IMG/VR virus record: IMGVR_UViG_3300048851_000184
Span: 1 to 64,000 of that record
Source: a virus
Lineage: Duplodnaviria > Caudoviricetes
DNA: 64,000 bases
Direction: 5' to 3' (one strand)
The notes below the pieces were generated by a model. The model was given only the letters and a program-made list of their open reading frames with translations, did not search any database and was not told the origin of the DNA. The translations under genes and the position numbers were made by a program. Below are positions 978 through 46,338 of this stretch, piece after piece (the stretch's first letter is position 1; every line of letters starts with the position of its first letter).

Positions 978-1023
978 GGGTCCTCCCGGCGCTCCAGGGT
1001 AATACGGGGGGCAAAGGCGCAAC
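978..1023 (+). other. Lambda-like cos site (cosQ GGGTCCT at 978-984 plus cosN-like TACG/GGGGGCAAAGGC) of prophage 1
   Basis: GGGTCCT is identical to lambda cosQ, lies about 22 nt before TACG-GGG as in lambda, directly upstream of terS, and is conserved at 46293. Confidence 0.7.
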
Positions 1024-1117
1024 TTCTTTCTAGGCACCGAAATCGCGTTAGTTCTTCCTCCTCGGGGCCAAAACCGGCGGATTTCTGCGGCTTTTCGGCT
1101 CGGGAGCAGGGAAGTAG

Positions 1118-1612
1118 ATGGAAATCGACCTTGAAGAGCCCAGCCGACCGCAACTCGCGGCCGTGTTCCAGGTTTCGAGCCGGTGGATCGGCGAGCTTCG
1201 GTCCCAAGGGAAGATGCCTGCGGACGGAGCCTCGCTGCTCGAGAACGTCGAGGCCTGGGCCGCCGTCAAGTACGGCGCAGCAGCGGCAGATCCGGAAGCG
1301 CTCAACAAGGAACAGGAGCAGGCGCGGCTGGCGAAAGAGCAGGCCGACGCCAAGGCGATGGACAATGCCGAGCGGCGCCGCGAGCTCGCATCGCTGCCGG
1401 ACATGGTGGCTGCCGGCGCCGGCGTGATCGTCATGATCGTGGCGCAGCTGCAGCAGGTCGGCGCCCGCGTTGCCAAAGGCGACACCAAGCTTCGAGCTCG
1501 CATCGATGCCGAGATCAACAACGTCCTCACCGACTTGAGTATGGCCCGGATTGAGGAGGCGCGCGGCGGGGGCTTCGATGACGGCGAGCCCGAGGAAGAG
1601 GGGAGCGATTGA
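1118..1612 (+). CDS. terS: Terminase small subunit (gpNu1-like)
   Basis: N-terminal HTH-like segment, coiled coil, overlaps terL start; position after cos. Confidence 0.8.
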   Translation: MEIDLEEPSRPQLAAVFQVSSRWIGELRSQGKMPADGASLLENVEAWAAVKYGAAAADPEALNKEQEQARLAKEQADAKAMDNAERRRELASLPDMVAAGAGVIVMIVAQLQQVGARVAKGDTKLRARIDAEINNVLTDLSMARIEEARGGGFDDGEPEEEGSD

Positions 1613-3572
1613 GCCCTATGAGGCGCCCGGCCCGCATGGCGTAGCGCTCGCCCGTGCATGGCTGGCCGCCTGCAAGCCTCGCGAGCGCCCGCCGCTGTCG
1701 AAGTTCATGGTCGAGCATGCGCGTTCCGACGACGGTGCGCGCATCCGACCGTTCCCGTTCCAGGCGGACATAGCCGACGCGTTCACGGATCCGGAGACGT
1801 CGCAGCTGTCGGTGCGGAAGAGCAGCCGCATCGGCTACTCGACCATCCTGCAGTGCTTCGTCGCCTGGCGTATCAAGTTCGATCCAGCGCGCACGCTGAT
1901 CTATCAGCCGACGATCGACGACGCGGAGAAGTTCAGCCGCGACGATCTGGACCCGGTTCTGCAATGGCCGGTGGTTCGCTCGGTTGCCACGTTCAAGCCG
2001 AGGCACGCTGACAACCAGATCCGGGCCAAGCGCTACAAGGGCGGCTGGATCCAGATCAAAGGCGCCAACAGCCCCAAGGAGTTCCGGCGCGTCACGGCCG
2101 ACGACGTGTTCCTGGAGGAGTGCGACGGCTACCCTTGGGCGTCGAAGGAAGAGGGCGATCCTGCCCGCCTCGCGTTCAAGCGCAACCTGACTTCGCCGCG
2201 TCGGTTCAGCGCCGCCGGGTCGACGCCGAAGGTAAAGGGCTTCAGCCGGATCGACCTGCTGTTCGAGCAGGGCAGCCAGGAGTTTCGCTACGTTCCCTGC
2301 CCACATTGCGGCGAGATGCAGCAGCTCGTGTTCGGCGACGGTACCGGCGCCGGCATTCGGTGGGAGCCAAAGGAGAACCCCACGCGCGCCTGGTACCGGT
2401 GCGTCAACGGCTGCGACATCGACGAAGCCGACAAGCCGGGGATGGATGAGGCGGGCGAGTGGCGGGCGCACAACCCGGACGCCTTCCCGCGGCACCGCTC
2501 GTTCCACATCTGGGCGGCGTACAGCCAGCATCCCGGAGCCGCATGGCTGGAGATCGCGCGCGAGTTCCTGGAGGTCCGCAAGGACCCGAACCTGCTCCGC
2601 ACCTTCGTCAACCAGGTGCTGGGAGAGGCATGGGCCGAACGTGGCGAGGCTCCGGAGTGGCAGCGCCTCTACGATCGCCGGGAGAAGGCGATGCGGCTGG
2701 GAACGCCATCGGCGAAGGCCGGCCTGCTGGTTGGTGCCGCTGACGTCCAGCGCGGAGGCGGTGGGCGCATCGACCTGGACATCTGGGCGTTCGGGCCGAA
2801 CGGCCGCCGCGAGTTCGTCGAGCGCATCGAGGTCTTCGGCCCGATCGCTGACAAGAAGACCTGGAAGAAGCTCGACGCCGAGGTCGCGCGTACCTGGGAG
2901 ACCGAAGACGGCCGCTCGATGCGCCTGGCACGGGTCGCGATCGATTCCGGCGACGGCGAGAACACGATGGAGGTGTACGCCTGGGCGCGTCGGCACCCCG
3001 GCTTTGCGATGGCCGTCAAAGGCCGGCACCAGATCAGCGCCAACCAGCCGATCGGTGCGCCGACCTGGCAGGACGTCACCGTCAACGGCCGCAAGCTGAA
3101 GCGCGGCGTCCGGCTTTGGAACATCGGCACCTCGATGCTGAAGCTGGAGTTGTTCGGCGACCTGGAGAAGGAAAAGCCGGTCGACGGCGAGGAGTACCCG
3201 GGCGGGTATGTCTTCCTCCCCGACGGCACCACCGACGAGTGGATCAAGCAGCTGGTGGCGGAGGAGCTCCGGATCATCCGGCTGCGAAGCGGCGGCTTCC
3301 GGCGGGAGTGGCACAAGGTCCGCGATCGCAACGAGGCGCTCGATAACGCGGTCTATGCCCGCGCTGTCGCCTTTTCCCTGGGCGTCGACCGCTGGCGAGA
3401 GAGCGACTGGCAGAAGGCCCGGGGCGAGTTCACCAAACCGGCACCCCCGCCGCCCGCGCCGCCGCCGCAAGTTCCTGATGATCGCGCGCCCGCGCAGCCA
3501 CCCGCCGCAATCGCGGCGAAAGCCAAGCCGAAGCCCAAGCGTGCCAACCCGTTCACCAGCCGAGGGAGGTAG
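1578..3572 (+). CDS. terL: Terminase large subunit (lambda gpA family); exact start uncertain
   Basis: KSSRIGYS Walker A-like motif, VFLEE Walker B, STP, YVPCPHCGE zinc motif, AIDSG nuclease, RNEALD. Confidence 0.95.
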   Translation: MTASPRKRGAIEPYEAPGPHGVALARAWLAACKPRERPPLSKFMVEHARSDDGARIRPFPFQADIADAFTDPETSQLSVRKSSRIGYSTILQCFVAWRIKFDPARTLIYQPTIDDAEKFSRDDLDPVLQWPVVRSVATFKPRHADNQIRAKRYKGGWIQIKGANSPKEFRRVTADDVFLEECDGYPWASKEEGDPARLAFKRNLTSPRRFSAAGSTPKVKGFSRIDLLFEQGSQEFRYVPCPHCGEMQQLVFGDGTGAGIRWEPKENPTRAWYRCVNGCDIDEADKPGMDEAGEWRAHNPDAFPRHRSFHIWAAYSQHPGAAWLEIAREFLEVRKDPNLLRTFVNQVLGEAWAERGEAPEWQRLYDRREKAMRLGTPSAKAGLLVGAADVQRGGGGRIDLDIWAFGPNGRREFVERIEVFGPIADKKTWKKLDAEVARTWETEDGRSMRLARVAIDSGDGENTMEVYAWARRHPGFAMAVKGRHQISANQPIGAPTWQDVTVNGRKLKRGVRLWNIGTSMLKLELFGDLEKEKPVDGEEYPGGYVFLPDGTTDEWIKQLVAEELRIIRLRSGGFRREWHKVRDRNEALDNAVYARAVAFSLGVDRWRESDWQKARGEFTKPAPPPPAPPPQVPDDRAPAQPPAAIAAKAKPKPKRANPFTSRGR

Positions 3573-3574
3573 GA

Positions 3575-3790
3575 ATGTCGTATCAGCAGTCCGACCTGGA
3601 CCGGCTCAACCAAGCGATCGCGAGCGGCATCCGCAGCGTCACCTTCGCTGATGGTCGCCGGACGGAGTATCAGTCGCTTGACCAGCTGCTCGCCGCGAAG
3701 GCGGTGATCCAGAGCGAGTTGGCGATGAAGGCGACCGCGAAGGGCGCGATCGTCCACCGCCGTGTGCCGTTTTACCGGAGCGGCCTCTAA
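3575..3790 (+). CDS. gpW-like head completion protein
   Basis: 71 aa between terL and portal; AIASG-RSVTFADGRRTEYQS pattern. Confidence 0.75.
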   Translation: MSYQQSDLDRLNQAIASGIRSVTFADGRRTEYQSLDQLLAAKAVIQSELAMKATAKGAIVHRRVPFYRSGL

Positions 3791-5326
3791 ATGGCCGAGC
3801 GTACCCTGATGGATCGGCTGCTTCGGCGGGCGGTATCCGAGCCGGCGCCAGCCGCGGCGAGCGAGCGCAAGCGCATTCGGACCGGGCGCGGTGCGCGCGC
3901 GGAGTACGACGGCGCGACGCTCGGTCGGCGGGCCGCCGGGTGGCGGCGCACGCGGCTGGACGCCAACGGCGAACTCTCGCCTGCTGTTGCAGCGGCCCTG
4001 CGCGGGATCGCGCGCGACCTGGTGCGCAACAACCCGTTCGCGGCGCGCGGCGCGTCCACGATCGCGAACAACATGGTCGGCACCGGCATCACCTTTCAGG
4101 TGTACCGCGACGGCAAGATCGACGACCGGCTGAACAAGCTCGCCCGTCAGCATCTCGACACCACAGCGTGTGACGCCAGCGGCCGGCACGACCTCTACGG
4201 CCTCCAGCTTCAGGCGGCTCGGACGATTGTTGAGAGCGGCGCCGTGGTGATGCGTCGCCGCTGGCGCCGGGCTTCCGACCGGCTGCCGCTGCCGTTCCAG
4301 CTTCAGGTGATCGAGCCGGACTACATCGATCCGTCGAAGCATGGGCCGCTTTCCAGTGCGCCAGGCGTGCAGGGCGGGTTCCTGATCAACGGCGTGCAGT
4401 TCAGCCCTCTGGGCGCCCGCGAGGGCTACTGGCTGTATAACGGCCATCCTGGCGGTGGCCGCGCCGATGCGCTGGGCTCGACCTTCGTGAAGGCGGCAGA
4501 CGTTGCGCACGTCTTCCGCGCCGATCGGCCGGAGATGGAGCACGGCGCCACCTGGTTCGCGCCTGTCATCCTGCGGATGAAGGACTTCGGCGACTTCGAG
4601 GATGCGCAGCTGACGCGCCAGAAGCTCGCCAGCGCGTTCGTTGGCGTGGTGACGGGTGAGGATTCGGACGGCGTGATCCCCGGCATTGCGCAGGAAGAGG
4701 GCGGCCCGGACGATCGCGAGCCGCTCGACTACATCGAACCGGGCACCTTCCAGTATACCCGCCCTGGGGAGGAGGTAACCTTCTCCAGCCCCCCGGGCGT
4801 CGACGGGTATGCCGACTATACCAAGGTTTCGCTTCGGGCAGTGAGCTCGGGGCTGGGCGTGCCCTACGAGGCGCTCACCGGTGACCTGTCCAACGTGAAC
4901 TTCTCGTCCGGCCGAATGGGCTGGCTCGAATACCAGCGGTCGCTCGCCGCCTGGCAGTGGACGATGTTCATCCCGCAATTCTGTGGCGCGGTCGCCACGT
5001 GGCTGATCGACGCATTCGCGATGGTCGGTGAGGACGTGGAGGGTGTCACCGTCCGGTGGACGCCTCCCGGCCGAGAGATGATCAATCCCGCCGAAGAGGT
5101 GAAGGCGACCCGAGACGCCATCCGCTCCGGTCAGGACACGATCTCCGCCGCTGCGCGGCGCCGCGGTGAGGATCCCGACACCTTCCTGGCTGAGTGGAAG
5201 GCCGACGCCGAGAAGATCGACAAGCTCGGCCTCATCTTCGACTGCGACCCTCGCCGGGTGACCGCAGTCGGCAACCCTGCGGACAAAGAGCCCTCCGCCC
5301 AGCCTGTGCAGCCTCAGGGGGCCTGA
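3791..5326 (+). CDS. Portal protein, lambda family
   Basis: 511 aa; ARDLVRNNPFA, GVPYEALTGDLSNVNFSSGR motifs. Confidence 0.93.
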   Translation: MAERTLMDRLLRRAVSEPAPAAASERKRIRTGRGARAEYDGATLGRRAAGWRRTRLDANGELSPAVAAALRGIARDLVRNNPFAARGASTIANNMVGTGITFQVYRDGKIDDRLNKLARQHLDTTACDASGRHDLYGLQLQAARTIVESGAVVMRRRWRRASDRLPLPFQLQVIEPDYIDPSKHGPLSSAPGVQGGFLINGVQFSPLGAREGYWLYNGHPGGGRADALGSTFVKAADVAHVFRADRPEMEHGATWFAPVILRMKDFGDFEDAQLTRQKLASAFVGVVTGEDSDGVIPGIAQEEGGPDDREPLDYIEPGTFQYTRPGEEVTFSSPPGVDGYADYTKVSLRAVSSGLGVPYEALTGDLSNVNFSSGRMGWLEYQRSLAAWQWTMFIPQFCGAVATWLIDAFAMVGEDVEGVTVRWTPPGREMINPAEEVKATRDAIRSGQDTISAAARRRGEDPDTFLAEWKADAEKIDKLGLIFDCDPRRVTAVGNPADKEPSAQPVQPQGA

Positions 5327-7372
5327 ATGACTGAAATCCTGATCTACGGGATCGTCGGCGATAGCTGGGACGGTCTCGATGCCAACACGCTCGTCCCGCT
5401 CATCTCCGAAGGTGACGACGACCTGAGCCTGCGCATCAACAGCCCGGGCGGATACGTCATGGAGGGCCTCGCCATCTTCAACGCGGTCGCTCGCGAGAAG
5501 AAGAAGGGCCGCAGGGTCACCTGCCACATCGACGGTCTGGCGGCCTCGATGGCGTCGATCATCGCCATGGCCGGCGACGAGATCATCATGGCCGACAATG
5601 CGCTGATGATGGTGCACAACCCGTGGGATTGCGCGTGCGGGGATGCCAACGAACTGCGCCGCGCGGCCGATAAGCTCGACAGCATCCGTGACCAGCTCGT
5701 CGGCATCTACGCCGCGCGCACCGGCGTGCCGGCAGAAGACCTGATCCCGCTCCTGGATGCGGAGACCTGGTTCACCGCCCAACAGGCGCTCGAGCAGAAC
5801 TTCATCACGTCGATCAGCGAGACCGCCACCGTGTCGGCCGCGATCAACGTCAAAGCATTCGGGTTCCGCAAGGTCCCGGACAGCCCGCTCGTCACCACCC
5901 TGGCGGTGGCGAGCACCCGGACGGCTCCCGCCGCTCCGCCCCCGCAGAAGGAAACCACCATGCCTCAGGGTACCCAGCCGGGCGGCGAAAACCAGCCGCC
6001 CGCCGACACCATCACTGCAGCCGATGCGCAGGCGCGCGCAGACGCCGCGGTCGTCGCGGAGCGCCAGCGTGTCGCAGGCATCCGCGCGCTCGCTACGAAG
6101 CACAAGCTGCCTGCCGACTTCATCGACGGCCTGGTCGATGACGGCACCGCGCTTGCCACCGCCCGCGAGAAGATCCTCGACAAGCTCGCAGAGGAAGGCG
6201 ACGCCGCCAACATCGGGCACAATAGCCCGGCACGGGTGACCGTGGACCAGCGCGAGAAGTTCCGCGAGGGCGCCACCAACTGGCTGCTCGTCAAGGCGGG
6301 CGTTGCTCACCTCGTCGAGAAGGCGGCGGCGCTGAACGGCAAGACTGTGAAGATCGACCCGGGCGAGTTCCGCGGCGTTCGCAACGTCGATCTCGCGCGT
6401 GAATCGCTCGGCAACCTGGGCGTCAACGTCACCACCCGCGACCCGGATCAGATCGTGCGGCAGGCGATGACCTCGCAGGGCGCTGTGATCACGCAGTCGA
6501 CCAGCGACTTCCCGGTCCTGTTCGAGAACGCGATCCATCGCACCCTGCAGGCGGCGTATGCGACCACGCCCGACACCTGGACGCGCTTCTGCGGCACCGG
6601 AACGGTTACGGACTTCCGTCCGCATAGCCGGTACCTTCGCGGCTCGTTCGGCGCGCTCGACAATGTGAACGAGGTGGGCGAGTTCAAGAACAAGCCCATC
6701 CCGGATCTCGCCAAGGAGTCTATCACCGCGTCGACGAAGGGCAACATCATCAACCTGTCGCGCCAGGCGATCGTCAACGACGACATGGAGGTTTTCTCCG
6801 GTTTCGCCGTCGACCTCGGCCGTGCCGCCAAGCTGACGATCGAGATCGACGTCTTCGCGCTGCTGAACAGCAACCCGATCATGAACGACGGCAAGCCGCT
6901 GTTTCATGCCGACCACGCCAATTTGGCGGCTGCGGGTGCCGCACCTTCGGTCGCGTCGTTCGACGCCATCCGCGTGGCAATGGCGAAGCAGAAGGATCTC
7001 AGCGGAAACGAGTACCTCGACATCCGTCCAAGCATCCTGCTGCTGCCGATCGAGCTCGGTGGCGCGGCACGCCGCATCAACGGCGCGCTCTACGATCCCG
7101 ACACCACGGGCAAGTTCCAGGTGCCGAACATCGTCAACGGCATGTTCGCGGACATCGTGGACACGCCGCGGCTGGCCGGCAGCGCGCAGTATGCGTTCGC
7201 CGACCCGAACGTCGCGCCGGCAATCGAGGTCGTGTTCCTCAATGGCGTGACGGAGCCGTTCACCGACAGCCAGGACGGCTGGCGCGTGGATGGTGTCGAG
7301 TGGAAGGTCCGCCACGACTACGGCGTCGGCGCCGTCAACTGGCGGTCCGCCTACAAGCAGCCGGGCGCCTAA
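5327..7372 (+). CDS. ClpP-type (S14) prohead protease fused to scaffold and major capsid protein
   Basis: INSPGG, GLAASMAS (Ser), MMVHNPW (His), ETW; C-terminal capsid domain ending KVRHDYGVGAVNWR. Confidence 0.9.
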   Translation: MTEILIYGIVGDSWDGLDANTLVPLISEGDDDLSLRINSPGGYVMEGLAIFNAVAREKKKGRRVTCHIDGLAASMASIIAMAGDEIIMADNALMMVHNPWDCACGDANELRRAADKLDSIRDQLVGIYAARTGVPAEDLIPLLDAETWFTAQQALEQNFITSISETATVSAAINVKAFGFRKVPDSPLVTTLAVASTRTAPAAPPPQKETTMPQGTQPGGENQPPADTITAADAQARADAAVVAERQRVAGIRALATKHKLPADFIDGLVDDGTALATAREKILDKLAEEGDAANIGHNSPARVTVDQREKFREGATNWLLVKAGVAHLVEKAAALNGKTVKIDPGEFRGVRNVDLARESLGNLGVNVTTRDPDQIVRQAMTSQGAVITQSTSDFPVLFENAIHRTLQAAYATTPDTWTRFCGTGTVTDFRPHSRYLRGSFGALDNVNEVGEFKNKPIPDLAKESITASTKGNIINLSRQAIVNDDMEVFSGFAVDLGRAAKLTIEIDVFALLNSNPIMNDGKPLFHADHANLAAAGAAPSVASFDAIRVAMAKQKDLSGNEYLDIRPSILLLPIELGGAARRINGALYDPDTTGKFQVPNIVNGMFADIVDTPRLAGSAQYAFADPNVAPAIEVVFLNGVTEPFTDSQDGWRVDGVEWKVRHDYGVGAVNWRSAYKQPGA

Positions 7373-7436
7373 GCGCTCCGCCCCTGGGCCAGACGGGGGC
7401 GGCTCCAGCCGCTCCCGTCACATCTGGAGATACCCG

Positions 7437-7742
7437 ATGAAGTTCGTGAAGCTGATCACGTCGGCGTACGTCGCCGGCGTGCTGCGGCACCCCCACGAGG
7501 GCGTGCTGCATGTCGAGGACGACCAGGCGAGGCGCCTGCTCGACGACAAGGTGGCGGAGGACGTCACCGCCGACTTCACCGCCAAGGAGAACAAGGAGAC
7601 GGGCGTCGACGCGATCACGGCCACCGATGGTGCCGCGCCCACCGCGCCTGCCTCCGAACCCCACCAGTCCGAAGTCGCTCCGCAGGCGACCGAGGGCGCC
7701 CCGAAGCCGAAGCCCGCCCGGGCGTCGGCGAGCAAGGAGTGA
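7437..7742 (+). CDS. Head-associated hypothetical protein
   Basis: GGAG RBS, 101 aa, same slot as 52816-53124 in prophage 2 (shared HP-EG-V-V-DD-A motif). Confidence 0.65.
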   Translation: MKFVKLITSAYVAGVLRHPHEGVLHVEDDQARRLLDDKVAEDVTADFTAKENKETGVDAITATDGAAPTAPASEPHQSEVAPQATEGAPKPKPARASASKE

Positions 7743-7748
7743 GCCGAC

Positions 7749-8090
7749 ATGGCACGCAATTTCGTCCAGCCCGGTGACACGATCACCATGATCGCCCCCT
7801 CCGCCGTCACCAGCGGCGCGGGCATGCTCGTCGGCGTCGTGTTCGCCGTCGCCCTCGCCAATGCCGCACAGTCGGCACTGGTCGAGGCGAAGCGGACCGG
7901 CGTCTGGGACCTCGCCAAGGCCCCCGGCGAAGCTTGGGTGGCGGACACCACCAAGCTGTACTGGGACAACACCGCCAAGCGCGTGACCGCGACCGCGACG
8001 GGCAACACGCTGATCGGCGTCGCTCGTCAGTCGCAGGCCTCCGCCGACACCGTCGGCCGCGTCCTGCTCACCGGCCAGATCGCGGCCTGA
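7749..8090 (+). CDS. DUF2190-like capsid decoration/cement protein
   Basis: MARNFVQPGD start, GVWDLAK, YWD motifs. Confidence 0.8.
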   Translation: MARNFVQPGDTITMIAPSAVTSGAGMLVGVVFAVALANAAQSALVEAKRTGVWDLAKAPGEAWVADTTKLYWDNTAKRVTATATGNTLIGVARQSQASADTVGRVLLTGQIAA

Positions 8091-34822: not shown

Positions 34823-34824
34823 GC

Positions 34825-36109: not shown

Positions 36110-36124
36110 TGCGGCCGAAGCTCC

Positions 36125-36325: not shown

Positions 36326-36450
36326 AGGTGGGCTCCCAGCGTGCGGGCGATGGTCAGGGCGGCGGCGATGATGGCAGCCGCGATCGGCAGCGCCTTCTCA
36401 ATCAGCCAGCGGTCGCGGTCGGCGTCGACCGGGTGGATCGGATCAGCCAT
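36322..36450 (-). CDS. Membrane microprotein (MADPIHPVDADRDRWL...)
   Basis: GGGAGAG RBS; paralog of next gene. Confidence 0.55.
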   Translation of the reverse strand: MADPIHPVDADRDRWLIEKALPIAAAIIAAALTIARTLGAHL

Positions 36451-37363: not shown

Positions 37364-37395
37364 CTGCGCCGCAAAACCGCGCGGCTGATGTAGGC

Positions 37396-37449
37396 AATAT
37401 GTAGGGCGTGCCCTACTAAGTCAAACGATAATCGTAGGGCGTGCCCTAC
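37396..37449 (-). promoter_or_regulatory. PL-like promoter with two operators (OL)
   Basis: GTAGGGCGTGCCCTAC at 37401-37416 and 37434-37449; TTGACT-17-CATATT on minus strand. Confidence 0.75.
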
Positions 37450-37838
37450 TATTCGTCCGGGTAGACCGGGTCAGGCCAGAAGCCGTCGTCCTCGTCACGC
37501 GGGGAAGGCATGCGCTTCTGGGGCAGCAATGGTTCGTCGCCATCGAACGCGGCGCGCACAACCGCGCCGTAGGCCGATTCCTCCTGGAAGGCGGCTATGA
37601 TGTCTCGACCAGAGTTAAGCATTCCACCAATCCACGGCGCGCGCTCGGCCGTCAGGTAGCCGATCTGGATGCCGCGGCAGCTGTAGACTGCTACGGCAAA
37701 TTCATCCGCTGGATTGTCAGGCTCGGGCCGCAGCTCGACCCGTTCACCGGGCGCGCATATCGCGAGTTCAAATCGTCGGCCCGGACCGCGCTTGTTGGGG
37801 TAATCAGCGCCAACGACTGCTAAGGATATCTGGCGCAC
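37449..37838 (-). CDS. Stand-alone HIRAN-domain protein
   Basis: AVVGADY, VELRPEPDNPADEFAVAV, QIGYL motifs. Confidence 0.8.
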   Translation of the reverse strand: MRQISLAVVGADYPNKRGPGRRFELAICAPGERVELRPEPDNPADEFAVAVYSCRGIQIGYLTAERAPWIGGMLNSGRDIIAAFQEESAYGAVVRAAFDGDEPLLPQKRMPSPRDEDDGFWPDPVYPDE

Positions 37839-37849
37839 TCTTCTCGCCC

Positions 37850-38557
37850 TTAGAGGTCCCTCGCAAAACGAATAACCCGACCGCCGATTATCAGTTCGTC
37901 GGCGTCGACTTCGTAGTTGTCGATCGTCGGGTTGTCGGAAATCACGAGCACTCGCCCTCCCTTCAACGGGCGTAGTCGTTTGATCGCGGCACCGCCGTTG
38001 ATTGATACGGCCCACACCCGATCAGCCTGGTTCAGGCGAGTCTGCGTGCTATCGATCCACACAAGGTCGTTGCTGTTGAGCGTTGGGTACATGCTGTCCC
38101 CCACGCCCCGAGCCAGCCGCAGCCGGTGCGGTGGGGTTCGCGTGAAACTACGGACGTAGCCAATGTCGAAAGTAACAGGCTCTTCCTCGATGTAGTCGTC
38201 CACCGTTGCTCCGGGACCCATCGGCAGAGACAGGTCTAGCTTGATGATCGGGACCGTCTCGTTGCCGTCTACCGTCCGAATGTTTGGTTGATCCGGGGCG
38301 TGCCTCGGCGCGCCGTCCTCTCTCGGATGGACAAGGTCAACGAGGTATTCTGGCTCGAATCCGAGCACCTGCTCCATAGCACGTAGGACCTTGGGCCCGG
38401 GCCGTTTCACCTTCCCGCGCTCTACATCCCACAACGGCTTTCCGGTGGTTCCGAGCATCTTCCGCAGTTGCGAATCGAAGTGGTCGCGGGTGTGCGGCGC
38501 GCGGTCGATGGCAGCCGCGAGTGCCGTCTGAAGGGGGCTGCGTTCGTCTGTTGCCAT
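37850..38557 (-). CDS. cI: CI-like repressor with S24 autopeptidase domain
   Basis: GVGDSMYPTL (Ser), AAIKRL (Lys), ISDNP; divergent from cro-like gene. Confidence 0.88.
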   Translation of the reverse strand: MATDERSPLQTALAAAIDRAPHTRDHFDSQLRKMLGTTGKPLWDVERGKVKRPGPKVLRAMEQVLGFEPEYLVDLVHPREDGAPRHAPDQPNIRTVDGNETVPIIKLDLSLPMGPGATVDDYIEEEPVTFDIGYVRSFTRTPPHRLRLARGVGDSMYPTLNSNDLVWIDSTQTRLNQADRVWAVSINGGAAIKRLRPLKGGRVLVISDNPTIDNYEVDADELIIGGRVIRFARDL

Positions 38558-38648
38558 GTAGGCCGTGTCCCACACCGCCGCCGCCCGTGCTATACTAGGG
38601 TTCACCCTACTTATTCCAGTTGACGGTAGGGCGCGCCCTACGTACAGT
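38558..38648. promoter_or_regulatory. OR operators and PR promoter
   Basis: GTAGGGCGCGCCCTAC 38626-38641, CTAGGGTTCACCCTAC 38595-38610, degenerate site 38558-38573; TTGACG(38620)-17-TACAGT(38643). Confidence 0.8.
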
Positions 38649-38655
38649 AGCCCAC

Positions 38656-38859
38656 ATGACGAGCGACACCCTACGCAGCGCGGTCGACGCATTCTTGCAG
38701 CGCACCGGCACGGCAGCTGTCACCTTCGGGCGTGAGGCGATGAACGATCCGCACTTCGTTCGTGATCTTCGCAACGGCCGGCGCGTGTGGCCCGAGACCG
38801 AGGCCAAGGTCCGCAAGTACATGAGCCAGCACCAGTGCGCCGAGCAGGTCGCAGCGTGA
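38656..38859 (+). CDS. Cro-like small HTH protein
   Basis: FGREAMNDPHFVRDLRNGR pattern, first gene after PR. Confidence 0.75.
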   Translation: MTSDTLRSAVDAFLQRTGTAAVTFGREAMNDPHFVRDLRNGRRVWPETEAKVRKYMSQHQCAEQVAA

Positions 38860-38999
38860 CGACGCCCCGCTGCACCACGTGCGACGTGCACGCCGAGCAC
38901 CCCGAGGCGCGCTCCTGCCCATTCGAGCGCTGCCCGCTCAAGCGCGGCCCGGCCGCTGCTGTTTTCACCCCCGTTCATGCCGATCGGAATGCGCGATGA
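38856..38999 (+). CDS. Small Cys-rich protein
   Basis: CTTC...CPFERCP; GTGA/ATGA overlaps. Confidence 0.5.
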   Translation: MTTPRCTTCDVHAEHPEARSCPFERCPLKRGPAAAVFTPVHADRNAR

Positions 39000-39475
39000 T
39001 CGACGAAACTGTCGTTGGTGAAACGACCCCACTTCCACGACCACGGTTGCACGCCAAGCTGATGCACGGCTGGAGCCGCGCGATTGATCGGCTGGGGAAG
39101 GGCGCCTTCTGCGACGCCATCGAGTGCACCGGCCCCGGCGTCGATAAGCAGCTTGCCGGGTCGATGCCCACGCTGGAGGTGATCGACCGCGCGCTGTGTG
39201 TTGCACCCGACGTGCTGGACGACTGGCTGCGCGCGAAGGGCTTGCGGCTGGTCGCCGAGAACGCGGTTTGCGATTCGGACGACCTGCAGCTGGTGCTGGC
39301 ACGTGCGCTGGTGATGCTCAACGAAGCGGAGCACCCCGACAGCCCCGGCGGCCGCACCATCACCCACCAAGAATATCTGACCGGCGAAGCGATGATGCGC
39401 GAGCTGCACGCGGCGACCGGCTCCTGGCTCCAGAAATGCACGAACATTCGCCGACCCACCGTGGTGGCATCCTGA
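38996..39475 (+). CDS. Hypothetical protein in CII position
   Basis: Position and helical composition only. Confidence 0.55.
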   Translation: MIDETVVGETTPLPRPRLHAKLMHGWSRAIDRLGKGAFCDAIECTGPGVDKQLAGSMPTLEVIDRALCVAPDVLDDWLRAKGLRLVAENAVCDSDDLQLVLARALVMLNEAEHPDSPGGRTITHQEYLTGEAMMRELHAATGSWLQKCTNIRRPTVVAS

Positions 39476-39512
39476 GGAACTGAGCGCCGGCACCACCGGC
39501 AGGAGTGACGAC

Positions 39513-40109
39513 ATGGACATGACGAACAGCGCGGGGGCGGCGATGGCCGCTTCCGCGACAGAGAAACCGCGTGCGGTCGGATCGGCAGACGCCGTCCTCG
39601 CCGTGCTGACCGCAGCGGCCGAGGTGGGGGCGCCGTGCCCATCCAACCTTGACCTGTCGCATATGCTCGGCGCGTCCACGCGCGGCGCCGGTGGCGGAGT
39701 GATCCGACGGCTGTTGGACCGCGGCCTCATTAGGGTGGACGGCCGCGGTACGTCCCGGGTGATCACCATCGTCGCGAGCGGCAAGTCCACCGGGGTGACC
39801 GCTCTGAAGGCCTCGCGGGTGACCTCCGGCAAGGCACGCCCGTGGACCGCTGACGAGATCGCGATCGTGGAGCGCGAGGTGCGCGCCGGGAAGAGCGACA
39901 GCGAGATCGGTGCGCTCCTGGGCCGCAACGCGAACAGCGTGTGGTGCCGTGCGAACCCGGTGCGGCGTGATCTGCGCGAGGACGCCCCGCCGGTCGCAGA
40001 GCCCCCCGCGGCCGCGCAGGCCATGTGCCACTATTGCGGCTCACGCATCGCGCCCGACGTCACCATCTCCTGCCGGGCGTGCAAGCCCCTGCGGAGCGCG
40101 GGAGCGTGA
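39513..40109 (+). CDS. Two-HTH protein (winged helix plus Myb/GcrA-like) with C-terminal CxxC pairs
   Basis: PCPSNLDL..MLG, PWTADEIAI...SEIGALLGRN, CHYC/CRAC. Confidence 0.55.
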   Translation: MDMTNSAGAAMAASATEKPRAVGSADAVLAVLTAAAEVGAPCPSNLDLSHMLGASTRGAGGGVIRRLLDRGLIRVDGRGTSRVITIVASGKSTGVTALKASRVTSGKARPWTADEIAIVEREVRAGKSDSEIGALLGRNANSVWCRANPVRRDLREDAPPVAEPPAAAQAMCHYCGSRIAPDVTISCRACKPLRSAGA

Positions 40110-41320
40110 GCGTCCGGATCCTGATCGGGGACGTGCGCGAGCAGCTGGCGAGGCTGCCGGCGGACTCCGTCGATTGCTGCGTCACGTCGCCCCCGTACTG
40201 GGGCCTGCGCGACTACGGCGTCGACGGTCAGATCGGGCTTGAGCCGACGCTGGGCGAGCACCTGGCGGTCATGGTCGACGTGTTCGAGGCGGTGAAGCGC
40301 GTGCTGAAGCCGGAGGGGACGCTCTGGCTCAACTACGGCGACTGCTACGCGACGAAGCCGAGCGGGCGCAGCGCCGCGGATACGAAGGCGGCGGGCAACG
40401 ACGATCGCACGTTCCGCGACAAGCCGTTTTCTACCATCGGGCCGGTCTACGTCGAGATGAGCGATGAGGCCCGCGCGGCGCGCGGCAACAAGATGAGCGG
40501 CGCGACGGATGGTGTCCGTACCGCACCGCCGCCAGCCGGACGCATCGCCGCAGGCGGCATCCTGAAGCCCAAAGACCTGTGCATGATCCCGAACCGGCTG
40601 GCGATCGCGCTGCAGGATGCCGGCTGGTGGGTCCGCTCGGAGATCGTGTGGGGCAAGCCGAACCCGATGCCGGACAGCAGCGGACGCTATCGACCGTCGA
40701 CCGCACACGAGAAGATCTGGCTGCTGACCAAGTCGGCGAAAAGCCACTACGACGCGCTGGCGGTCCGTATGCCGCGCGCGCAGGACGAGAACAGCAACGG
40801 CTATCCCGGGAGCACGGGTGACGGCGTCCGCCGCCGCACGACGGTGGGTAACCAGCGCTACAAGATGCCCGACGGGTGGGATACGAGCGCAGGCGGCCAC
40901 GGCAGCCGCCATCGTGCGGGTCGTGAGGCTGGACAGCGCGACGCAGCAGCCGCTCCGGAGGACGGTCGCCGCTTCCTTCGCAACTATGAGCCCGACCTGT
41001 CCGGCATCATCCCGCCCGAGGTCTGGCAGATCGCGACGGCGCCGTTCAGCGAGGCGCACTTCGCCACATTCCCGCCCGCGCTGGTCGCCCCGTGCATCAT
41101 GGCGGGCTGCCCGGCTGGTGGCGTGGTGCTCGATCCCTTCGGCGGCGCGGGCACTACCGGCCTCGTGGCCGACCGGCTCCAGCGCGACGCGATTCTGATC
41201 GAGCTGAACCCCGAATACGCCGCGATCGCGGAGCGCCGATTGGCATCCGACCGCGGCGCCCTGCTCGACGCGATGGAGGCCGAGAAGCCCCTCCCGTTCC
41301 TTGAAGGAGAAGCAGCATGA
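40106..41320 (+). CDS. Orphan amino-methyltransferase (N4-mC/N6-mA, beta class)
   Basis: VTSPPYWG catalytic motif before VVLDPFGGAGTT SAM-binding motif; HFATFP. Confidence 0.9.
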   Translation: MSVRILIGDVREQLARLPADSVDCCVTSPPYWGLRDYGVDGQIGLEPTLGEHLAVMVDVFEAVKRVLKPEGTLWLNYGDCYATKPSGRSAADTKAAGNDDRTFRDKPFSTIGPVYVEMSDEARAARGNKMSGATDGVRTAPPPAGRIAAGGILKPKDLCMIPNRLAIALQDAGWWVRSEIVWGKPNPMPDSSGRYRPSTAHEKIWLLTKSAKSHYDALAVRMPRAQDENSNGYPGSTGDGVRRRTTVGNQRYKMPDGWDTSAGGHGSRHRAGREAGQRDAAAAPEDGRRFLRNYEPDLSGIIPPEVWQIATAPFSEAHFATFPPALVAPCIMAGCPAGGVVLDPFGGAGTTGLVADRLQRDAILIELNPEYAAIAERRLASDRGALLDAMEAEKPLPFLEGEAA

Positions 41321-42456
41321 CGAGCGTGCAGTTTGAGCGCGTCGCATTGGCGCGCGCGCTTTCGATCGCGTCCAAGGTTGCGGGCTGGGCCGCGCCTGAC
41401 TGGTTCCCCCCGCGCGCCGAGGGCATGAAGGCGATGCCCGGGCCGCCGCTGGTGGAGATCGTCGCGGCTGGAGGTCTCGCGACCATCCGGTCGGCCAACT
41501 TCCAGCGGGAGATCGTGGTCGAGGTGCCCGCCATGGGTGAGTGCCAGGCGATCGTCCCTGCGGCGATGCTCGGCGGCTGGGTGCATCGCGCGACCGGCGC
41601 CACCGTGCACATGCAGCTGACGGACGCTGAGGCGCTGTTCAACTGCGGCCGTCAGCGCATGACGCTCCGTAGTTCGCGGCGCCCCTATGTCCCGGCTCGT
41701 ACGCCCGCCGAGGTGCTGCGCGCACCGCTGTCGAAGGTGCGCAGCGGGTTCTCTGCCACGGTGGCGGTGCCGAAGGAGGGCGGCGACCAGGTCGCCATGG
41801 GCGGGGTGCACATCCGCGGCACCGCCGAGGCCTTGGGCTTCTTCTCGACCGAGCACGGCCGGGCGCACGAGCAGATCGCGCCCGCGGCTGGTGGCGTCGC
41901 GCTGATCGTGCCGATCGAGGCCGTGAAGCTCTTTCTCGTGACGTTCGACGCCATGGAAGGGGAGGTGAGCATCCACGCGGACGGGCGCTCGGTCGCCTTT
42001 GCGGCTGGCGACATCCGCATCACCTCCGCGCTGATCGATGCGTCGCCCCTCAATGCCGAGCAGCAGTTCCGGACGGAGCGGAGCAATGTCCTGCGCGCGA
42101 CTGCCGACACGCTGCTCGCACACATCGAACTGGCGACCACGGTTTCCGACCCCCGACATCGCGAGTTCCAGCTTCGGCTTGGCGCCGCATGCGAGGTCCA
42201 CGCGGCCAGCCAAGGCGGCAAGGACGACGCCACCGTCGCACTGGTGGCGAACTGGCTCGGCTCGCCCATGCGCGTCACCTTCGCGCTCCGCCCCGTGCGC
42301 GACGCGCTCCTGCTGTTCGGCAAGGAGCAGATCGAGTGGCGCATGGCCGGTCCGCTGGAGCCGACTGTCATCTCGTCGGTCGCCCAGCCCGACCTGCGCG
42401 CCCTCGTCGCACCGTTCCTCCCCACCACCGACCAGAAGCAGGCGAAGGCAGCATGA
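41317..42456 (+). CDS. Diverged DNA polymerase III beta-clamp-like protein
   Basis: 379 aa; three-repeat layout, ST.HGR, SALID, F....V.DAL segments recall DnaN. Confidence 0.55.
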   Translation: MTSVQFERVALARALSIASKVAGWAAPDWFPPRAEGMKAMPGPPLVEIVAAGGLATIRSANFQREIVVEVPAMGECQAIVPAAMLGGWVHRATGATVHMQLTDAEALFNCGRQRMTLRSSRRPYVPARTPAEVLRAPLSKVRSGFSATVAVPKEGGDQVAMGGVHIRGTAEALGFFSTEHGRAHEQIAPAAGGVALIVPIEAVKLFLVTFDAMEGEVSIHADGRSVAFAAGDIRITSALIDASPLNAEQQFRTERSNVLRATADTLLAHIELATTVSDPRHREFQLRLGAACEVHAASQGGKDDATVALVANWLGSPMRVTFALRPVRDALLLFGKEQIEWRMAGPLEPTVISSVAQPDLRALVAPFLPTTDQKQAKAA

Positions 42457-42617
42457 ACTTCCGGAAGAAGGGCGACCTGATGGAGCTCGCAACTGCCATC
42501 GAGAACGGCGACAAGGTGGCGGCGCGCGCTGCCCTTGATCGGGTTTTCGCCAGCAACGTCGAAAAGACGGAGTGCATCGCGCAGGCGCGCGCCCTTGCGC
42601 GCCGGCGGACAGCATGA
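42453..42617 (+). CDS. Small hypothetical protein
   Basis: ATGA overlaps. Confidence 0.5.
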   Translation: MNFRKKGDLMELATAIENGDKVAARAALDRVFASNVEKTECIAQARALARRRTA

Positions 42618-42871
42618 GCGAGCCGGAAAAGCGGCACGGCTCGCTGAGCGAGCGCCTGATGCGCGTCACCCTGCTCCAGAAGGCGCAGGAGTTCGTCGGC
42701 CAGGAGCGGCTGGCGGAGGGCATGGGCCTCGCCAGCCGCTCGCTCCGCGCGAAGCTGTCGATCGACCGGGGGCTGAGCGACGCCGACCTGTTGGGCGCCG
42801 CATCTGCGGTCGAGGCGCGCGCGGCCGAACTGACGGCGTTCGCCGCGAAAATCCGGGAGCGGCTGGCGTGA
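42614..42871 (+). CDS. Small HTH-like protein
   Basis: GQERLAEGMGLASRSL segment. Confidence 0.5.
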   Translation: MSEPEKRHGSLSERLMRVTLLQKAQEFVGQERLAEGMGLASRSLRAKLSIDRGLSDADLLGAASAVEARAAELTAFAAKIRERLA

Positions 42872-42893
42872 AGCCGACGAACAGGGATCCCGC

Positions 42894-43259
42894 GTGAAGC
42901 TTCCGCCGCTCCTTGAACGGCCGGTACAGCGCGCGCTGATCGACAGCTTCGCGTGGCAGGGCTGCCATGCCGTGCACGTGCCGAACGGCAGCCACCTCGC
43001 TGGCGGCCCGCTGTCGCGCGCCAAGCAGGTGGCCGCGCTGAAGGCGGACGGCATGCGCCCCGGCTTTCCCGACCTCACGGTGCTCGACCAGCGCAAGCCG
43101 CGCGTCGGCTTCGTCGAGGTGAAGCGGGAAGGGTGGGACGACCTTGATCCCGACCAGGAGTGGTGGCGCGACGAGATCCAGCGGCTGGACCTGCCGTGGG
43201 CGCTTGCGAACCGTCCGGACCAGGCGCCAGAGATCCTGCGCGTGTGGGGGTGGCGATGA
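42894..43259 (+). CDS. VRR-NUC-family nuclease
   Basis: HVPNG, GMRPGFPDL, FVEVK PD-(D/E)XK motifs. Confidence 0.8.
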   Translation: MKLPPLLERPVQRALIDSFAWQGCHAVHVPNGSHLAGGPLSRAKQVAALKADGMRPGFPDLTVLDQRKPRVGFVEVKREGWDDLDPDQEWWRDEIQRLDLPWALANRPDQAPEILRVWGWR

Positions 43260-44026
43260 GCGCGACCTCCTGCGGCTTCGACCTGATCCGGGCCGCCTAT
43301 GCTGCGGCTGGGCTGGACGAGCACGAGCGTGCCGTCCTTGTGCTGCTCGCCTTCATGGCAAACGATGATCGCCAGGCGTGGCCCTCTATCGCCTACATCG
43401 TCGAGAAGACGGGCAAGGGCGAGCGCACCGTTCAACGTGCGATCAAGCGACTGGTGGAGGGTGCACACCTGTCGCGGCGCCAGCGTCGACACGACACCGC
43501 TGTCTATGTTGTGCACCCGCAGGCTATCCCGGAAGCCGTCAACGATCCCAAACCCGTCAGTGGGACGGGCGTCGGACTGACGGGCGTCAGCGGTACGCCC
43601 GTCAGTGAGGACGTTAAGACCCGTCCCACAGACACCCTAATAGCCAAGAACAACCAACCCTCTCCGGATGCTTCGCATCCTGCGAGGTCCCGCAAGGCGC
43701 CAGCGGATCAGCGTGCGCAGCGGCTGGCTGACGATTGGGCACCGGAAGCTTTTCCCCAAGGCAGTGCAGCGGCCGACGCAACCGCCGGTTGGCCGCCGGG
43801 GATGCTCGACCGGGAACTGTCCAAGTTCCGCGACTACTTCCGGGCCCAGCCCGGAGCGAAGGGTCGAAAGACCGACTGGCAAGCAACCTTCCGAAACTGG
43901 GTGATCCGGGCAGATGAGCAGCAGCAACGAAATCGCAGTCCGCGAGGACATTGGTCGGACCGGAGCCGCTATCGCGACCCGCTCCTCGATCGCTATGTTG
44001 GAGGCGGAGATCCCGGCCTGGGTTGA
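43256..44026 (+). CDS. Replication initiator (N-terminal HTH, C-terminal DnaT-like)
   Basis: AWPSIAYI..KTG...RTVQRAI..L; KFRDYF...KTDWQATFRNWV. Confidence 0.8.
   Translation: MSATSCGFDLIRAAYAAAGLDEHERAVLVLLAFMANDDRQAWPSIAYIVEKTGKGERTVQRAIKRLVEGAHLSRRQRRHDTAVYVVHPQAIPEAVNDPKPVSGTGVGLTGVSGTPVSEDVKTRPTDTLIAKNNQPSPDASHPARSRKAPADQRAQRLADDWAPEAFPQGSAAADATAGWPPGMLDRELSKFRDYFRAQPGAKGRKTDWQATFRNWVIRADEQQQRNRSPRGHWSDRSRYRDPLLDRYVGGGDPGLG
43553..43640. repeat. Iteron-like repeats inside initiator gene (candidate origin)
   Basis: CCCGTCAGTG at 43553 and 43598, inverted copy 43576, GACGGGCGTC x2, then A-rich tract. Confidence 0.55.
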
Positions 44027-44576
44027 CCTGGGCGAGCTCGATGCCAGCTTCCCCCACGGCTACGGCCGGCCGATCCCGGCTGGCGCCGCGCCGGCGCTGC
44101 TGATCGCCGCGGAGAAGCACCGGTCCGCGATGGTGCCAGCCGCCCCAGCCGAACGCCACGCCGTGCTGATGGGGCTGCGGTCCGGCACGATCCTCCGAGA
44201 CGAGGATGCGGACGAGGCCGAGGCTACGGTGAAGCTGCTGCGCGTCCACCTCGACGACGTGCCGCTCGACATCCTTCAAGCTGCGTGCCGCGCCTACTGC
44301 AATGCTCCTGGCCGCCGGTTTTTCCCACGCTCGGCTGGTGAACTGCGGACCTTCATCTCGCCGCTGCAGTACCAGCGCCAGGCGCGTGCGGTCCGGCTGG
44401 AGCGGCTGGCAGCCGAGGCGAAGAAGGCCGACGCGAGGCGGGCGGAACTCGAAGGCGACCCGCTGACCCCGGAGGCTATGCGCGAGATCCTCGCTGCCGC
44501 CGGGGAACGCGCCCGGGCTCGGCTGTTGCCGCTGATTCCTAGCGCAGGCTCTCAGCAGCACAGCGAGGCGGCGTGA
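43995..44576 (+). CDS. Hypothetical protein in helicase-loader position
   Basis: DVPLDILQAAC..Y.....RFFP..GEL motif. Confidence 0.6.
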   Translation: MLEAEIPAWVDLGELDASFPHGYGRPIPAGAAPALLIAAEKHRSAMVPAAPAERHAVLMGLRSGTILRDEDADEAEATVKLLRVHLDDVPLDILQAACRAYCNAPGRRFFPRSAGELRTFISPLQYQRQARAVRLERLAAEAKKADARRAELEGDPLTPEAMREILAAAGERARARLLPLIPSAGSQQHSEAA

Positions 44577-45166
44577 TGGGTGGAAGGCCTCCGCGCGGCT
44601 TGGCCGCTGGCGATCCGCGCCCGGAACTCGAGACGGCCGATGGGGTCGGCGGACGGCTGCGCGTCGTCGAGCTGCCGAAGCTCTGTAACAGCCAGGCGGC
44701 GATGACCGCTGCATATCGGGCGTCAATGATCCTGATCGAGCAAGGCTGGATGCGGTACCCGGCCGCGCGTTGGGACCAGCCGGCCATTGCGGTGATGGAC
44801 GGCGCAACCTGCGTAGCCGGCGTCAGCTTCAGTGAGGATCGAGACGAGCGGGCGTTCAGTGTGGACTTTGCCTTCTCGGACCCGGCCCATCCGGTTGCGT
44901 TCACGCTCCTCCTTCAGCGCATCCGGAGCAAGGTGGTGGGCGGTGACTTCGACGAGGTCCGGTTCGCTTGCCACGAAGGCAACGAGCCGATGCGCCGGGC
45001 TGTCAACATCCTGGGCGCCCGGGTCTTCAGCCACAGCTATCGGATGCCGGTGGCGGCCTTGTCGCGGTCCTCGCGCCCGCCGCCGCCCGTGGCACAGAGG
45101 TCTGCCCCAGGGGAGTGGGACGTGCGGGGCGAGGCGGATCAACGTAACAAGCGGGGGTGGAAGTGA
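44576..45166 (+). CDS. Putative GNAT-fold protein
   Basis: Beta-strand pattern plus HEGNEPMRRAVNILG resembling GNAT motif B. Confidence 0.4.
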   Translation: MGGRPPRGLAAGDPRPELETADGVGGRLRVVELPKLCNSQAAMTAAYRASMILIEQGWMRYPAARWDQPAIAVMDGATCVAGVSFSEDRDERAFSVDFAFSDPAHPVAFTLLLQRIRSKVVGGDFDEVRFACHEGNEPMRRAVNILGARVFSHSYRMPVAALSRSSRPPPPVAQRSAPGEWDVRGEADQRNKRGWK

Positions 45167-45774
45167 TGGCGTTGGAGAACGGGGAGCGCGCACGCGAGGA
45201 GCGCTGGTGCATCCTGCGGACGCACGGCGGCAGAACCCTGCCACTTGCCCGCTCGCTCGCGGACGCGGGCATTCTTGCGTGGACGCCGGTGGAGCATGTG
45301 CGCCGGCGCATCCCGCGATCGAGGGAGAAGGAGCGAGAGTTCCGACCCGTTCCCTACCTTCCGACCTATGTGTTCGCCCCGGCCGCTGACCTGGGCGAAC
45401 TTCGGCGTCTGGAGGTGGCGGAGGAAAGCGGGCATCCAGCCTTCTCCATCTTCCGCCACTACGGCGCATCGGTGCTGGTGCCGGAGGCTGAGATCGCATC
45501 CCTGCGCCAGCGGGAGGCCGAGAGCAGGCGCCGCATGGAGCAGAGCCTGGACGCTCAGGAGCGGCATGGACGACCGCTGAGGGAGCGCGCCGTGCCCTAT
45601 GCGCGCGGCTCTGAGGTTGCCGTGGAGGAGGGCGCATTCGCCGGCCTGTCGGGCATTGTCGAGGAGAGCGACGGCCGGCACACGCTGCTCCTGTTCGGCA
45701 CCCACCTGCGCGTGACGATTGAGACTTCCACATTGCGGGGGAATGCTGTAGCAGAGCCGTCATCTGCTGACTGA
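45166..45774 (+). CDS. NusG-family (NGN plus KOW) antiterminator in Q position
   Basis: WCILRT, LPTYVF, GSEVAVEEGAFAGLSGIV KOW motif. Confidence 0.8.
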   Translation: MALENGERAREERWCILRTHGGRTLPLARSLADAGILAWTPVEHVRRRIPRSREKEREFRPVPYLPTYVFAPAADLGELRRLEVAEESGHPAFSIFRHYGASVLVPEAEIASLRQREAESRRRMEQSLDAQERHGRPLRERAVPYARGSEVAVEEGAFAGLSGIVEESDGRHTLLLFGTHLRVTIETSTLRGNAVAEPSSAD

Positions 45775-45939
45775 TCAGCCCAGACGAGCGATGCGCCGGC
45801 GTAAGCGCCACTGCCCTCGTCATCATGACCGACCGGTGAGGGCGCCTATGCGGCGCTTGGCCGGGAGTCCGGCAGGCTACCTGAAATCCAAGACGCGAGC
45901 CGGTTTAGCGGCTCGCCTGCGCAGCGCGGTCTGGAGGTG

Positions 45940-46167
45940 CGGATGTCGGGCACGTCGCTCACCCCGTCAGATCGGCTGCGCAACCTTGCGGGTGAGATCG
46001 AGACGCTAGCGGACGCCATGGAGCAGCCCTCGCGCACGACTGCCCGCGCGGACATGCTGATCGCCGAGTGCGAGCGTATCGCCGCCGACGTGCGTGCGGT
46101 GGTGCGGGGCAGGGCCCGGCCTTCGGCTCGGCCGCTGTGGCATCGTGGAGGACAGGCGGCTTGGTAA
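45940..46167 (+). CDS. Small hypothetical protein
   Basis: GGAGG RBS. Confidence 0.55.
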   Translation, partial: RMSGTSLTPSDRLRNLAGEIETLADAMEQPSRTTARADMLIAECERIAADVRAVVRGRARPSARPLWHRGGQAAW

Positions 46168-46292
46168 GCGCCGCGATCGCGGGCTCGGAGTATTTCAGCC
46201 GTGAGGCCTAACCCTCGCACCTAGACCGATTTTCGACCCTCCGACCTTCGGCGCGACCCATCATCCCACATGGTGGGACCGCCCCCCCCCTT

Positions 46293-46338
46293 GGGTCCTT
46301 CCGGCGCCGCAGGGTAATACGGGGGGCAAAGGCGCAAC
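46293..46338 (+). other. Lambda-like cos site of prophage 2
   Basis: GGGTCCTTCCGG...AGGGTAATACGGGGGGCAAAGGCGCAACTT, core identical to 996-1025. Confidence 0.7.

Follow-up and report, generated by a model that had tools for sequence, protein, structure and literature searches.

The closest described counterparts of the elements studied here are the cos sites of phage lambda and of the RcC-cluster phages. In lambda, initiation of packaging requires a matching cosB, whereas termination requires only cosQ and cosN (PMC4669245; PMC9026076). Cross-initiation between specificities takes place at about 1e-4, and a helper terminase packages the chromosome comprised between the cos sites of tandem prophages, with 1-4 virions per cell (PMC4669245). 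The RcC-cluster phages have defined ends, mapped with reads, with 11-base 5' overhangs (PMC8601537). We analyzed a stretch of 64,000 nucleotides (referred to here as the window), which is the first 64 kb of the single 72,387-bp IMG/VR record IMGVR_UViG_3300048851_000184 (67% GC). It contains two prophages, 1 and 2, each carrying one copy of a motif that, judging from its sequence, is very probably a lambda-type cosQ-cosN site. A first-pass annotation of this DNA, which cited the lambda packaging rules correctly, had proposed that these motifs were matching cos sites bracketing a complete hybrid phage packageable without excision.

The probable cos motifs of the two prophages

Exactly two copies of the 30-mer AGGGTAATACGGGGGGCAAAGGCGCAACTT were found, both of them on the + strand (996-1025 and 46311-46340), and none of 100 shuffled controls gave any match. 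The heptamer GGGTCCT was located 18 nt upstream of each 30-mer (978-984 and 46293-46299). The offset between the motif copies was 45,315 bp, in agreement with the first-pass annotation, which had described GGGTCCT followed by an identical core in both prophages at that distance. The 12-mer GGGTCCTTCCGG was exact at the second site (cos2) and had one mismatch at the first one (cos1). Both copies belong to a common core of about 75 nt that is 87% identical between the two sites and constitutes an island of identity: there was no similarity leftward, and rightward the similarity faded and resumed at 1300/46635 at about 90%. In both prophages the motif is located 90-110 nt upstream of terS. The sites are as follows:

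970-1044, + strand: cos1 core of prophage 1, with a cosQ-like GGGTCCT (978-984), a predicted top-strand nick at 1006/1007 and a conserved CTAG box (1030-1033)
46285-46359, + strand: cos2 core of prophage 2, with a cosQ-like GGGTCCT (46293-46299) and a predicted nick at 46321/46322
1007-1017 and 46322-46332: 11-nt 5' overhang GGGGGCAAAGG, predicted by homology

The genome ends of lambda (J02459), RcKemmy and RcBaka were read, and in each case the right end was joined to the left end for alignment. The RcMeacham record had also been considered as an end-mapped reference; it begins with GATCT followed by GGGGGCGG, overlaps its own end and is untrimmed, and it was not used, the end-mapped Rhodobacter references being limited to RcKemmy and RcBaka. 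With slashes marking the nicks, the alignments had the form GGGTCCTTTCCGG-N16-ACG/GGGCGGCGACCT/CGC-N9-CTAT for the lambda ends, GGGTCCTTCCGG-N14-ACG/GGGGGCAAAGG/CGC-N9-CTAG for prophage 2 and AGGTTCTTCCG-N14-GCG/GGGGGCGGAAG/CGC-N9-CTAG for the RcKemmy ends. The ACG and CGC flanks of cosN thus aligned with the ends of lambda and of RcKemmy and RcBaka, the nick positions in the window being predicted. Set against shuffles, the end-anchored global alignments gave 0/2000 for RcKemmy and prophage 2, 3/2000 for lambda and prophage 1, and 15/2000 for lambda and prophage 2. GGGTCCT occurs in lambda at 48473-48479, which we take to be cosQ, and in the window cosQ lies 29 nt from the predicted nick, the corresponding distances being 30 nt for lambda and 28 nt for RcKemmy. 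The terL product of the RcC phages is 38% identical to that of the window.

Conservation of the motif was analyzed in other phage DNA. The 19-mer ATACGGGGGGCAAAGGCGC was present in 29 IMG/VR stretches, nearly always with TTGGGTCCTTCC 14 nt upstream (few variants, of one or two bases) and in most cases with CTAG 9 nt downstream, and at least four types of terS leader were found among these 29 stretches. Since the 19-mer was fixed by construction in this survey, it was repeated on loci found by terL protein alone. In 49 of these loci the motif was located 530-660 bp upstream of terL, with a nearly invariant cosQ; the terL products of these 49 loci showed nearly all at least 64% identity, and one of them 49%. 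The overhang GGGGGCAAAGG was found in 33 of the 48 distinct sequences, the variants being mainly in its right half; in lambda, changes within the overhang's right half are without effect on cleavage (PMC4669245). Homology of about 60 other loci to the window began sharply at 969-972, and the genes upstream of cos differ between prophage 1 (phrog_12870) and prophage 2 (phrog_6386). This abrupt start of homology, together with the varied leader types downstream, indicated that the core travels with terL and not with the upstream gene or regulator.

A conserved motif that follows an antiterminator gene and precedes the first late gene might also be a late promoter or an antiterminator target, and by our own reading TTGGGT-N18-TAATAC is loosely promoter-like. 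However, a promoter consensus scan yielded no promoter at the motif, the would-be -10 bases are not conserved, and the motif stays constant despite the different upstream genes and matches real virion ends, those of lambda and of the RcC phages. No Rfam family matched at the motif either. We regard this explanation as highly improbable, and the late promoter or RNA element was ruled out by the lack of a promoter consensus and of an Rfam family, a cos site being preferred.

Several further observations concern the cos motif. In all three phage groups, exactly 9 nt separate the CTAG box (CTAT in lambda) from the preceding CGC, which adjoins the right nick (lambda 1-30, RcKemmy 1-30, window 1018-1033 and 46333-46348). 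This box may correspond to part of the I2 segment of lambda. A perfect cosQ-cosN copy was found in a prophage elsewhere in the chromosome of S. desiccabilis CP1D (C1:1597225-1597267). In IMGVR_UViG_2911878434_000005 (about 20,229-30,584), the gpA-family terL of a sphingomonad-type provirus is split by an insert of about 10.3 kb that contains an O-like replication initiator, an Ant anti-repressor, its own terS and, at the right edge, a tyrosine integrase. Ahead of this terS the insert has another copy of the cosQ-cosN motif (with the 19-mer at 23348-23366), which supports the assignment of the motif as cos. In appearance the insert is a helper-embedded satellite of the HE-PICI type (PMC10111431), here outside the enterobacteria.

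Two neighbouring prophages and the interval between their probable cos sites

IMG/VR classifies the 72,387-bp record as a provirus excised in silico from a larger metagenome contig. Provirus boundaries in IMG/VR are software estimates; the left and right ends of this record both fall at gene boundaries, the left one about 1 kb (one gene) to the left of cos1. The host is Sphingomonas, and the HspQ proteins of the window and of S. desiccabilis CP1D, the closest named relative of the host, share 89% identity. Comparison of the whole record with itself by blastn revealed two related, collinear prophages (970-27238 against 46285-71844, 80-90% identity), except that at 3.4-8.0 kb the block of portal, protease and capsid genes has been replaced. 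Both are in the same orientation in neighbouring tRNA genes: prophage 1 is integrated in tRNA-Ala(CGC) and prophage 2 in tRNA-Ser(CGA), 685 bp away. Host homology spans 27980 to 28715, stopping at the final base of tRNA-Ser(CGA). Prophage 2 begins after 28715 and has a minimum length of 43,672 bp, since the record ends before its attR; no repeat of the tRNA-Ser region of at least 12 nt was found elsewhere in the 72,387-bp record. The junction contains:

27981-28030, + strand: attR of prophage 1, the 3' ~50 nt of tRNA-Ala(CGC), matching the intact tRNA-Ala of Sphingomonas desiccabilis
28114-28494, - strand: host gene for an HspQ/YccV-like hemimethylated-DNA-binding protein (PF08755)
28626-28715, + strand: host tRNA-Ser(CGA) (ARAGORN), the 3' end of which is attL of prophage 2

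A survey around hspQ in sphingomonad and related genomes, with 80 loci kept, showed hspQ-tRNA-Ser(CGA) synteny in nearly all of them where the locus extends far enough, and tRNA-Ala(CGC) adjoining hspQ only in S. desiccabilis. None of these 80 loci had both the tRNA-Ala and the tRNA-Ser sites occupied. As a separate observation, tRNA-Ser(CGA) beside hspQ is a recurrent integration site, an integrase homologue directly adjoining it in about 7 of the 80 loci.

The interval between the two predicted nicks is composed of:

1007-28030: prophage 1 right arm, 27,024 bp
28031-28715: host DNA, 685 bp
28716-46321: prophage 2 left arm, 17,606 bp
Total: 45,315 bp

This spacing of one genome between the cos sites arises because two collinear prophages sit in tRNA genes 685 bp apart, and requires no special feature. 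Among relatives, the complete ones have 43,111 bp (43,234 bp less a terminal repeat of 123 bp) and 45,011 bp; most provirus records are 44-46 kb long. A unit of 45,315 bp is therefore plausibly packable in principle, as far as capsid limits can be taken from the lengths of these relatives. The genes flanking and filling the interval are:

1-747: 248-aa gene to the left of cos1, phage family phrog_12870
1118-1612, + strand: terS of prophage 1, 164 aa (phrog_57)
1551-3572, + strand: gpA-family large terminase gene (terL) of prophage 1 (PF05876 and PF20454)
3575-24426, + strand: head, tail and lysis genes of prophage 1 (adaptor, lambda-type portal, ClpP-capsid fusion, tail genes, tape measure, J-like fibre)
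23356-23880, + strand: endolysin of prophage 1
24166-24426, + strand: Rz-like spanin of prophage 1
28785-30452, + strand: P4-type tyrosine integrase of prophage 2 (PF13356, PF22022 and PF00589)
37850-38692, - strand: CI-like repressor of prophage 2 (phrog_4, phrog_6201)
43160-44026, + strand: O-like replication initiator of prophage 2 (phrog_1032, phrog_391 and others)
45157-45774, + strand: late-gene antiterminator of prophage 2 (phrog_6386)
46432-46947, + strand: terS of prophage 2, TTG start, 171 aa, type B N-terminal domain (phrog_57)
46886-48895, + strand: gpA-family large terminase gene (terL) of prophage 2 (PF05876 and PF20454)

Prophage 2 also contains a methyltransferase gene and a clamp homologue, located after the CI-like repressor and before the O-like initiator. 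In both prophages a lambda-family portal gene is located directly downstream of terS and terL. The two terL products are 95% identical over 620 aa and only their last ~50 aa differ, a divergence that matches the different portals of prophages 1 and 2. The replaced head block (3395-8010 against 48730-53386) codes for a ClpP-capsid fusion in prophage 1 and for an S78-protease-capsid fusion in prophage 2, and the break point of the replacement falls inside terL.

The inventory of the interval given by the first-pass annotation (prophage 1 late genes, attR, hspQ, tRNA-Ser, and prophage 2 integrase through antiterminator) was thus found to be accurate. Its description of a "complete" hybrid was too strong: a full set of phage modules is present in the interval, but this bears attR of prophage 1 and attL of prophage 2 and no attP. 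Its claim of matching cos sites also held, since the two sites are co-oriented, comprise cosQ and cosN, have identical predicted sticky ends and lie one unit length apart. We consider it likely that two related lambda-like siphophage prophages have their cos sites at these motifs, each made up of a cosQ heptamer and cosN, and that the interval is a formally packageable, unit-length substrate.

Several points weigh against this interpretation. The nick positions rest on homology, with a possible error of 1-2 nt. The early arm of prophage 1 lies outside the record. The provirus comes from a metagenome contig, in which the tandem arrangement may be the result of assembly over the common host segment of 685 bp. 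Finally, normal excision would part the two cos sites before packaging.

One alternative is that prophage 1 is a defective late-region remnant, with cos1 as a relic usable only with a type A TerS from another phage. Consistent with this, the record begins at a gene boundary just one gene to the left of cos1, G006, a sibling provirus occupying the same tRNA-Ala, likewise ends about 1 kb to the left of its cos, and the 248-aa gene at 1-747 had no homologue in the other loci compared. Searches for the left arm found nothing in two metagenome scans (with the first 40 nt of the record and with the equivalent end of a sibling record), and window 1-960, compared at the DNA level with 401 Sphingomonas genomes, had chance matches only. 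Against a remnant, the gene at 1-747 belongs to a phage family, the late genes of prophage 1 are all intact and of lengths comparable to their prophage 2 counterparts, and the boundaries are software estimates, the right end of prophage 2 being cut off as well. Besides, some sibling records break at repeat boundaries or begin at the terS codon, and the breaks at repeats point to assembly. We consider a remnant less likely than not.

The second alternative is that the tandem is an assembly chimera, in which a strain with a tRNA-Ala prophage and one with a tRNA-Ser prophage were joined via the hspQ-tRNA-Ser segment. The metagenome series from which the record comes does contain related strains with single-site proviruses (G002 and G003 at tRNA-Ser, G006 and G007 at tRNA-Ala), and the common host segment is just 685 bp long. 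However, these sibling records are 80-93% identical to the window, so they represent neither the same phages nor the same host, and both junctions fit exactly the S. desiccabilis synteny tRNA-Ala-hspQ-tRNA-Ser. An artifact of this kind appears improbable, and a genuine pair of neighbouring prophages is preferred.

Packaging specificity and predicted packaging of the interval

Packaging specificity would reside to the right of the nick, where the two prophages differ:

1018-1117, + strand: cosB-side leader of prophage 1, type A (TTCTTCCTCC ... GGCGGATTTCTGCGGCTTTTCGG ... AGGGAAG), differing from the prophage 2 leader

Pairwise alignment of the two terS products showed that their C-terminal ~110 aa are nearly identical and that their N-terminal ~60 aa, which are the DNA-binding part, are weakly similar. 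TTTTCGG-like repeats are present in the leader, in which neither an R-site array nor an IHF site could be defined. Read at the sequence level, a differing leader and terS N-terminal domain together with the same cosN is the lambda/21/N15 pattern of shared cosN and private cosB. All four pairings of cosB type and head type were present among relatives.

In the terS leader we also observed arms able to pair, covering the terS ribosome-binding site (window 1036-1130 and 46351-46445), at the same place in other loci. They consist of TTCTTCCTCC and AGGGAAG in one leader type and of GCCGCCGCC and GGAGGCGGC in the other, both arms changing together. Folding z-scores were weak (-0.55 to -2.3, with one of +0.24). 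This hairpin may be a translational control element or part of cosB.

The identity and arrangement of the cos sites can be read from the record; from these we infer how cutting, packaging and hybrid viability might follow. By analogy with lambda, TerS would bind the variable cosB side and the gpA-type TerL would nick at ACG/GGGGGCAAAGG/CGC, leaving an 11-nt 5' overhang. Packaging would proceed rightward towards terS and would end at the next cosQ-cosN, whatever the cosB type there, the interval resembling the passive chromosome of a lambda tandem dilysogen.

The full claim of the first-pass annotation was that the terminase of induced prophage 1 cuts cos1 in the chromosome and ends at cos2 without excision, giving, at a biologically meaningful frequency, a viable 45.3-kb hybrid that carries hspQ and tRNA-Ser. 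The cis requirements are all present: the cos sites are co-oriented and have identical predicted overhangs, the site of termination has a consensus cosQ, and the spacing is of unit length. Genes for packaging, head, tail, lysis, integrase, immunity, replication and antitermination are present as well. There is also precedent in lambda (PMC4669245), and pac phages package in situ before excision (bioRxiv 10.1101/2021.08.25.457636). On the other hand, the regulatory arm of prophage 1 lies outside the record, and the late-promoter region of this prophage (748-969) shows no relation to the prophage 2 one, so that the type A TerS may not be expressed and the late genes of prophage 1 may not be activated by the prophage 2 antiterminator. 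In addition, the hybrid would have no attP. No free (non-provirus) contig with hspQ was found in IMG/VR, where the only two hspQ records are proviruses with hspQ at the record edge, nor was any circular or terminal-repeat contig with hspQ found there. Moreover, natural hybrids are already accounted for by ordinary module recombination, all four cosB and head pairings occurring and recombination at the conserved cos-terS-terL segment already yielding hybrids.

We therefore judge it unlikely, taken as a whole, that cutting in place and release of a viable hybrid occur at such a frequency. The locus may conceivably represent a natural, cos-type counterpart of lateral transduction, in which induction of the double lysogen would release infectious hybrids without excision, bearing the virion genes of prophage 1, the immunity and replication genes of prophage 2, hspQ and tRNA-Ser(CGA); we would put this forward only tentatively. 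Packaging of the hybrid in situ is a reasonable, testable prediction and not a finding, and one that we think less likely than not to hold. If it were true, the hybrid would move a host tRNA gene and hspQ and reshuffle phage modules in one step; if not, the locus would be an ordinary pair of neighbouring prophages.

Comparison with known cos and in situ packaging systems

For a large and so far uncharacterised group of temperate Sphingomonas phages, these analyses provide a predicted, sequence-level definition of cos (cosQ, nick sites and 11-nt overhang). The cosQ-cosN architecture of lambda is recognisable as far as alphaproteobacterial phages, which permits prediction of ends in prophages and metagenomes. 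As in lambda cos, which is served by the gpNu1/gpA terminase and has variants in 21 and N15, terS and a gpA-family terL are located immediately to the right of the site, the GGGTCCT heptamer lies about 29-30 nt to the left of the nick, and a G-rich overhang, here a predicted one, is flanked by ACG and CGC. As in lambda and 21, a variable, putative cosB side is paired with a variable terS N-terminal domain and cosN is common. Unlike lambda, the predicted overhang has 11 nt (GGGGGCAAAGG) and not 12, there is no recognisable R3-I1-R2-R1 array, and the lysis genes are located after the tail genes, which obliges the late transcript to run across cos. Here the host is an alphaproteobacterium with 67% GC, and the ends are predicted from the sequence.

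The RcC-cluster phages (RcKemmy, RcBaka and others; PMC8601537) have a homologous cosQ-cosN-CTAG motif, inside which the termini of their records fall. They share with the window a gpA-type terL (38% identical) and a capsid-protease fusion, and their ends are defined 11-base 5' overhangs. They differ in the position of terS, which in them is separated from cos by about 2 kb that hold a ParB-like gene and four genes on the reverse strand. Water samples yielded these phages in virion form, and whether they are lytic or temperate is listed as not determined.

Packaging of the chromosome from cos to cos is classical lambda biology, and what is new here is a natural heterologous tandem instance. 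As in the lambda tandem dilysogens of the 'Ter' test (Feiss laboratory; PMC4669245), two co-oriented chromosomal cos sites lie one unit apart. In those dilysogens, the upstream cosB sets initiation and the downstream cos terminates whatever its cosB type, and the product is a hybrid of the prophage 1 right arm and the prophage 2 left arm, the same as would be expected here. In contrast to the lambda dilysogen, the arrangement in the window is natural and involves two different phages in two adjacent attB sites instead of one attB, and consequently the unit holds 685 bp of host DNA, attR and attL in place of attP.

Since they need a second cos, phages of the cos type are usually considered incapable of productive packaging of flanking host DNA. 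Adjacent sister prophages offer a natural way round this need, and the locus described here is a concrete, testable case. The predicted in situ packaging together with adjacent host genes would resemble lateral transduction by late-excising pac prophages (P22, ES18 and staphylococcal 80alpha). Unlike lateral transduction, a cos terminase needs a second cos, which the neighbouring prophage would supply, and the outcome would be one defined unit and not successive headfuls.

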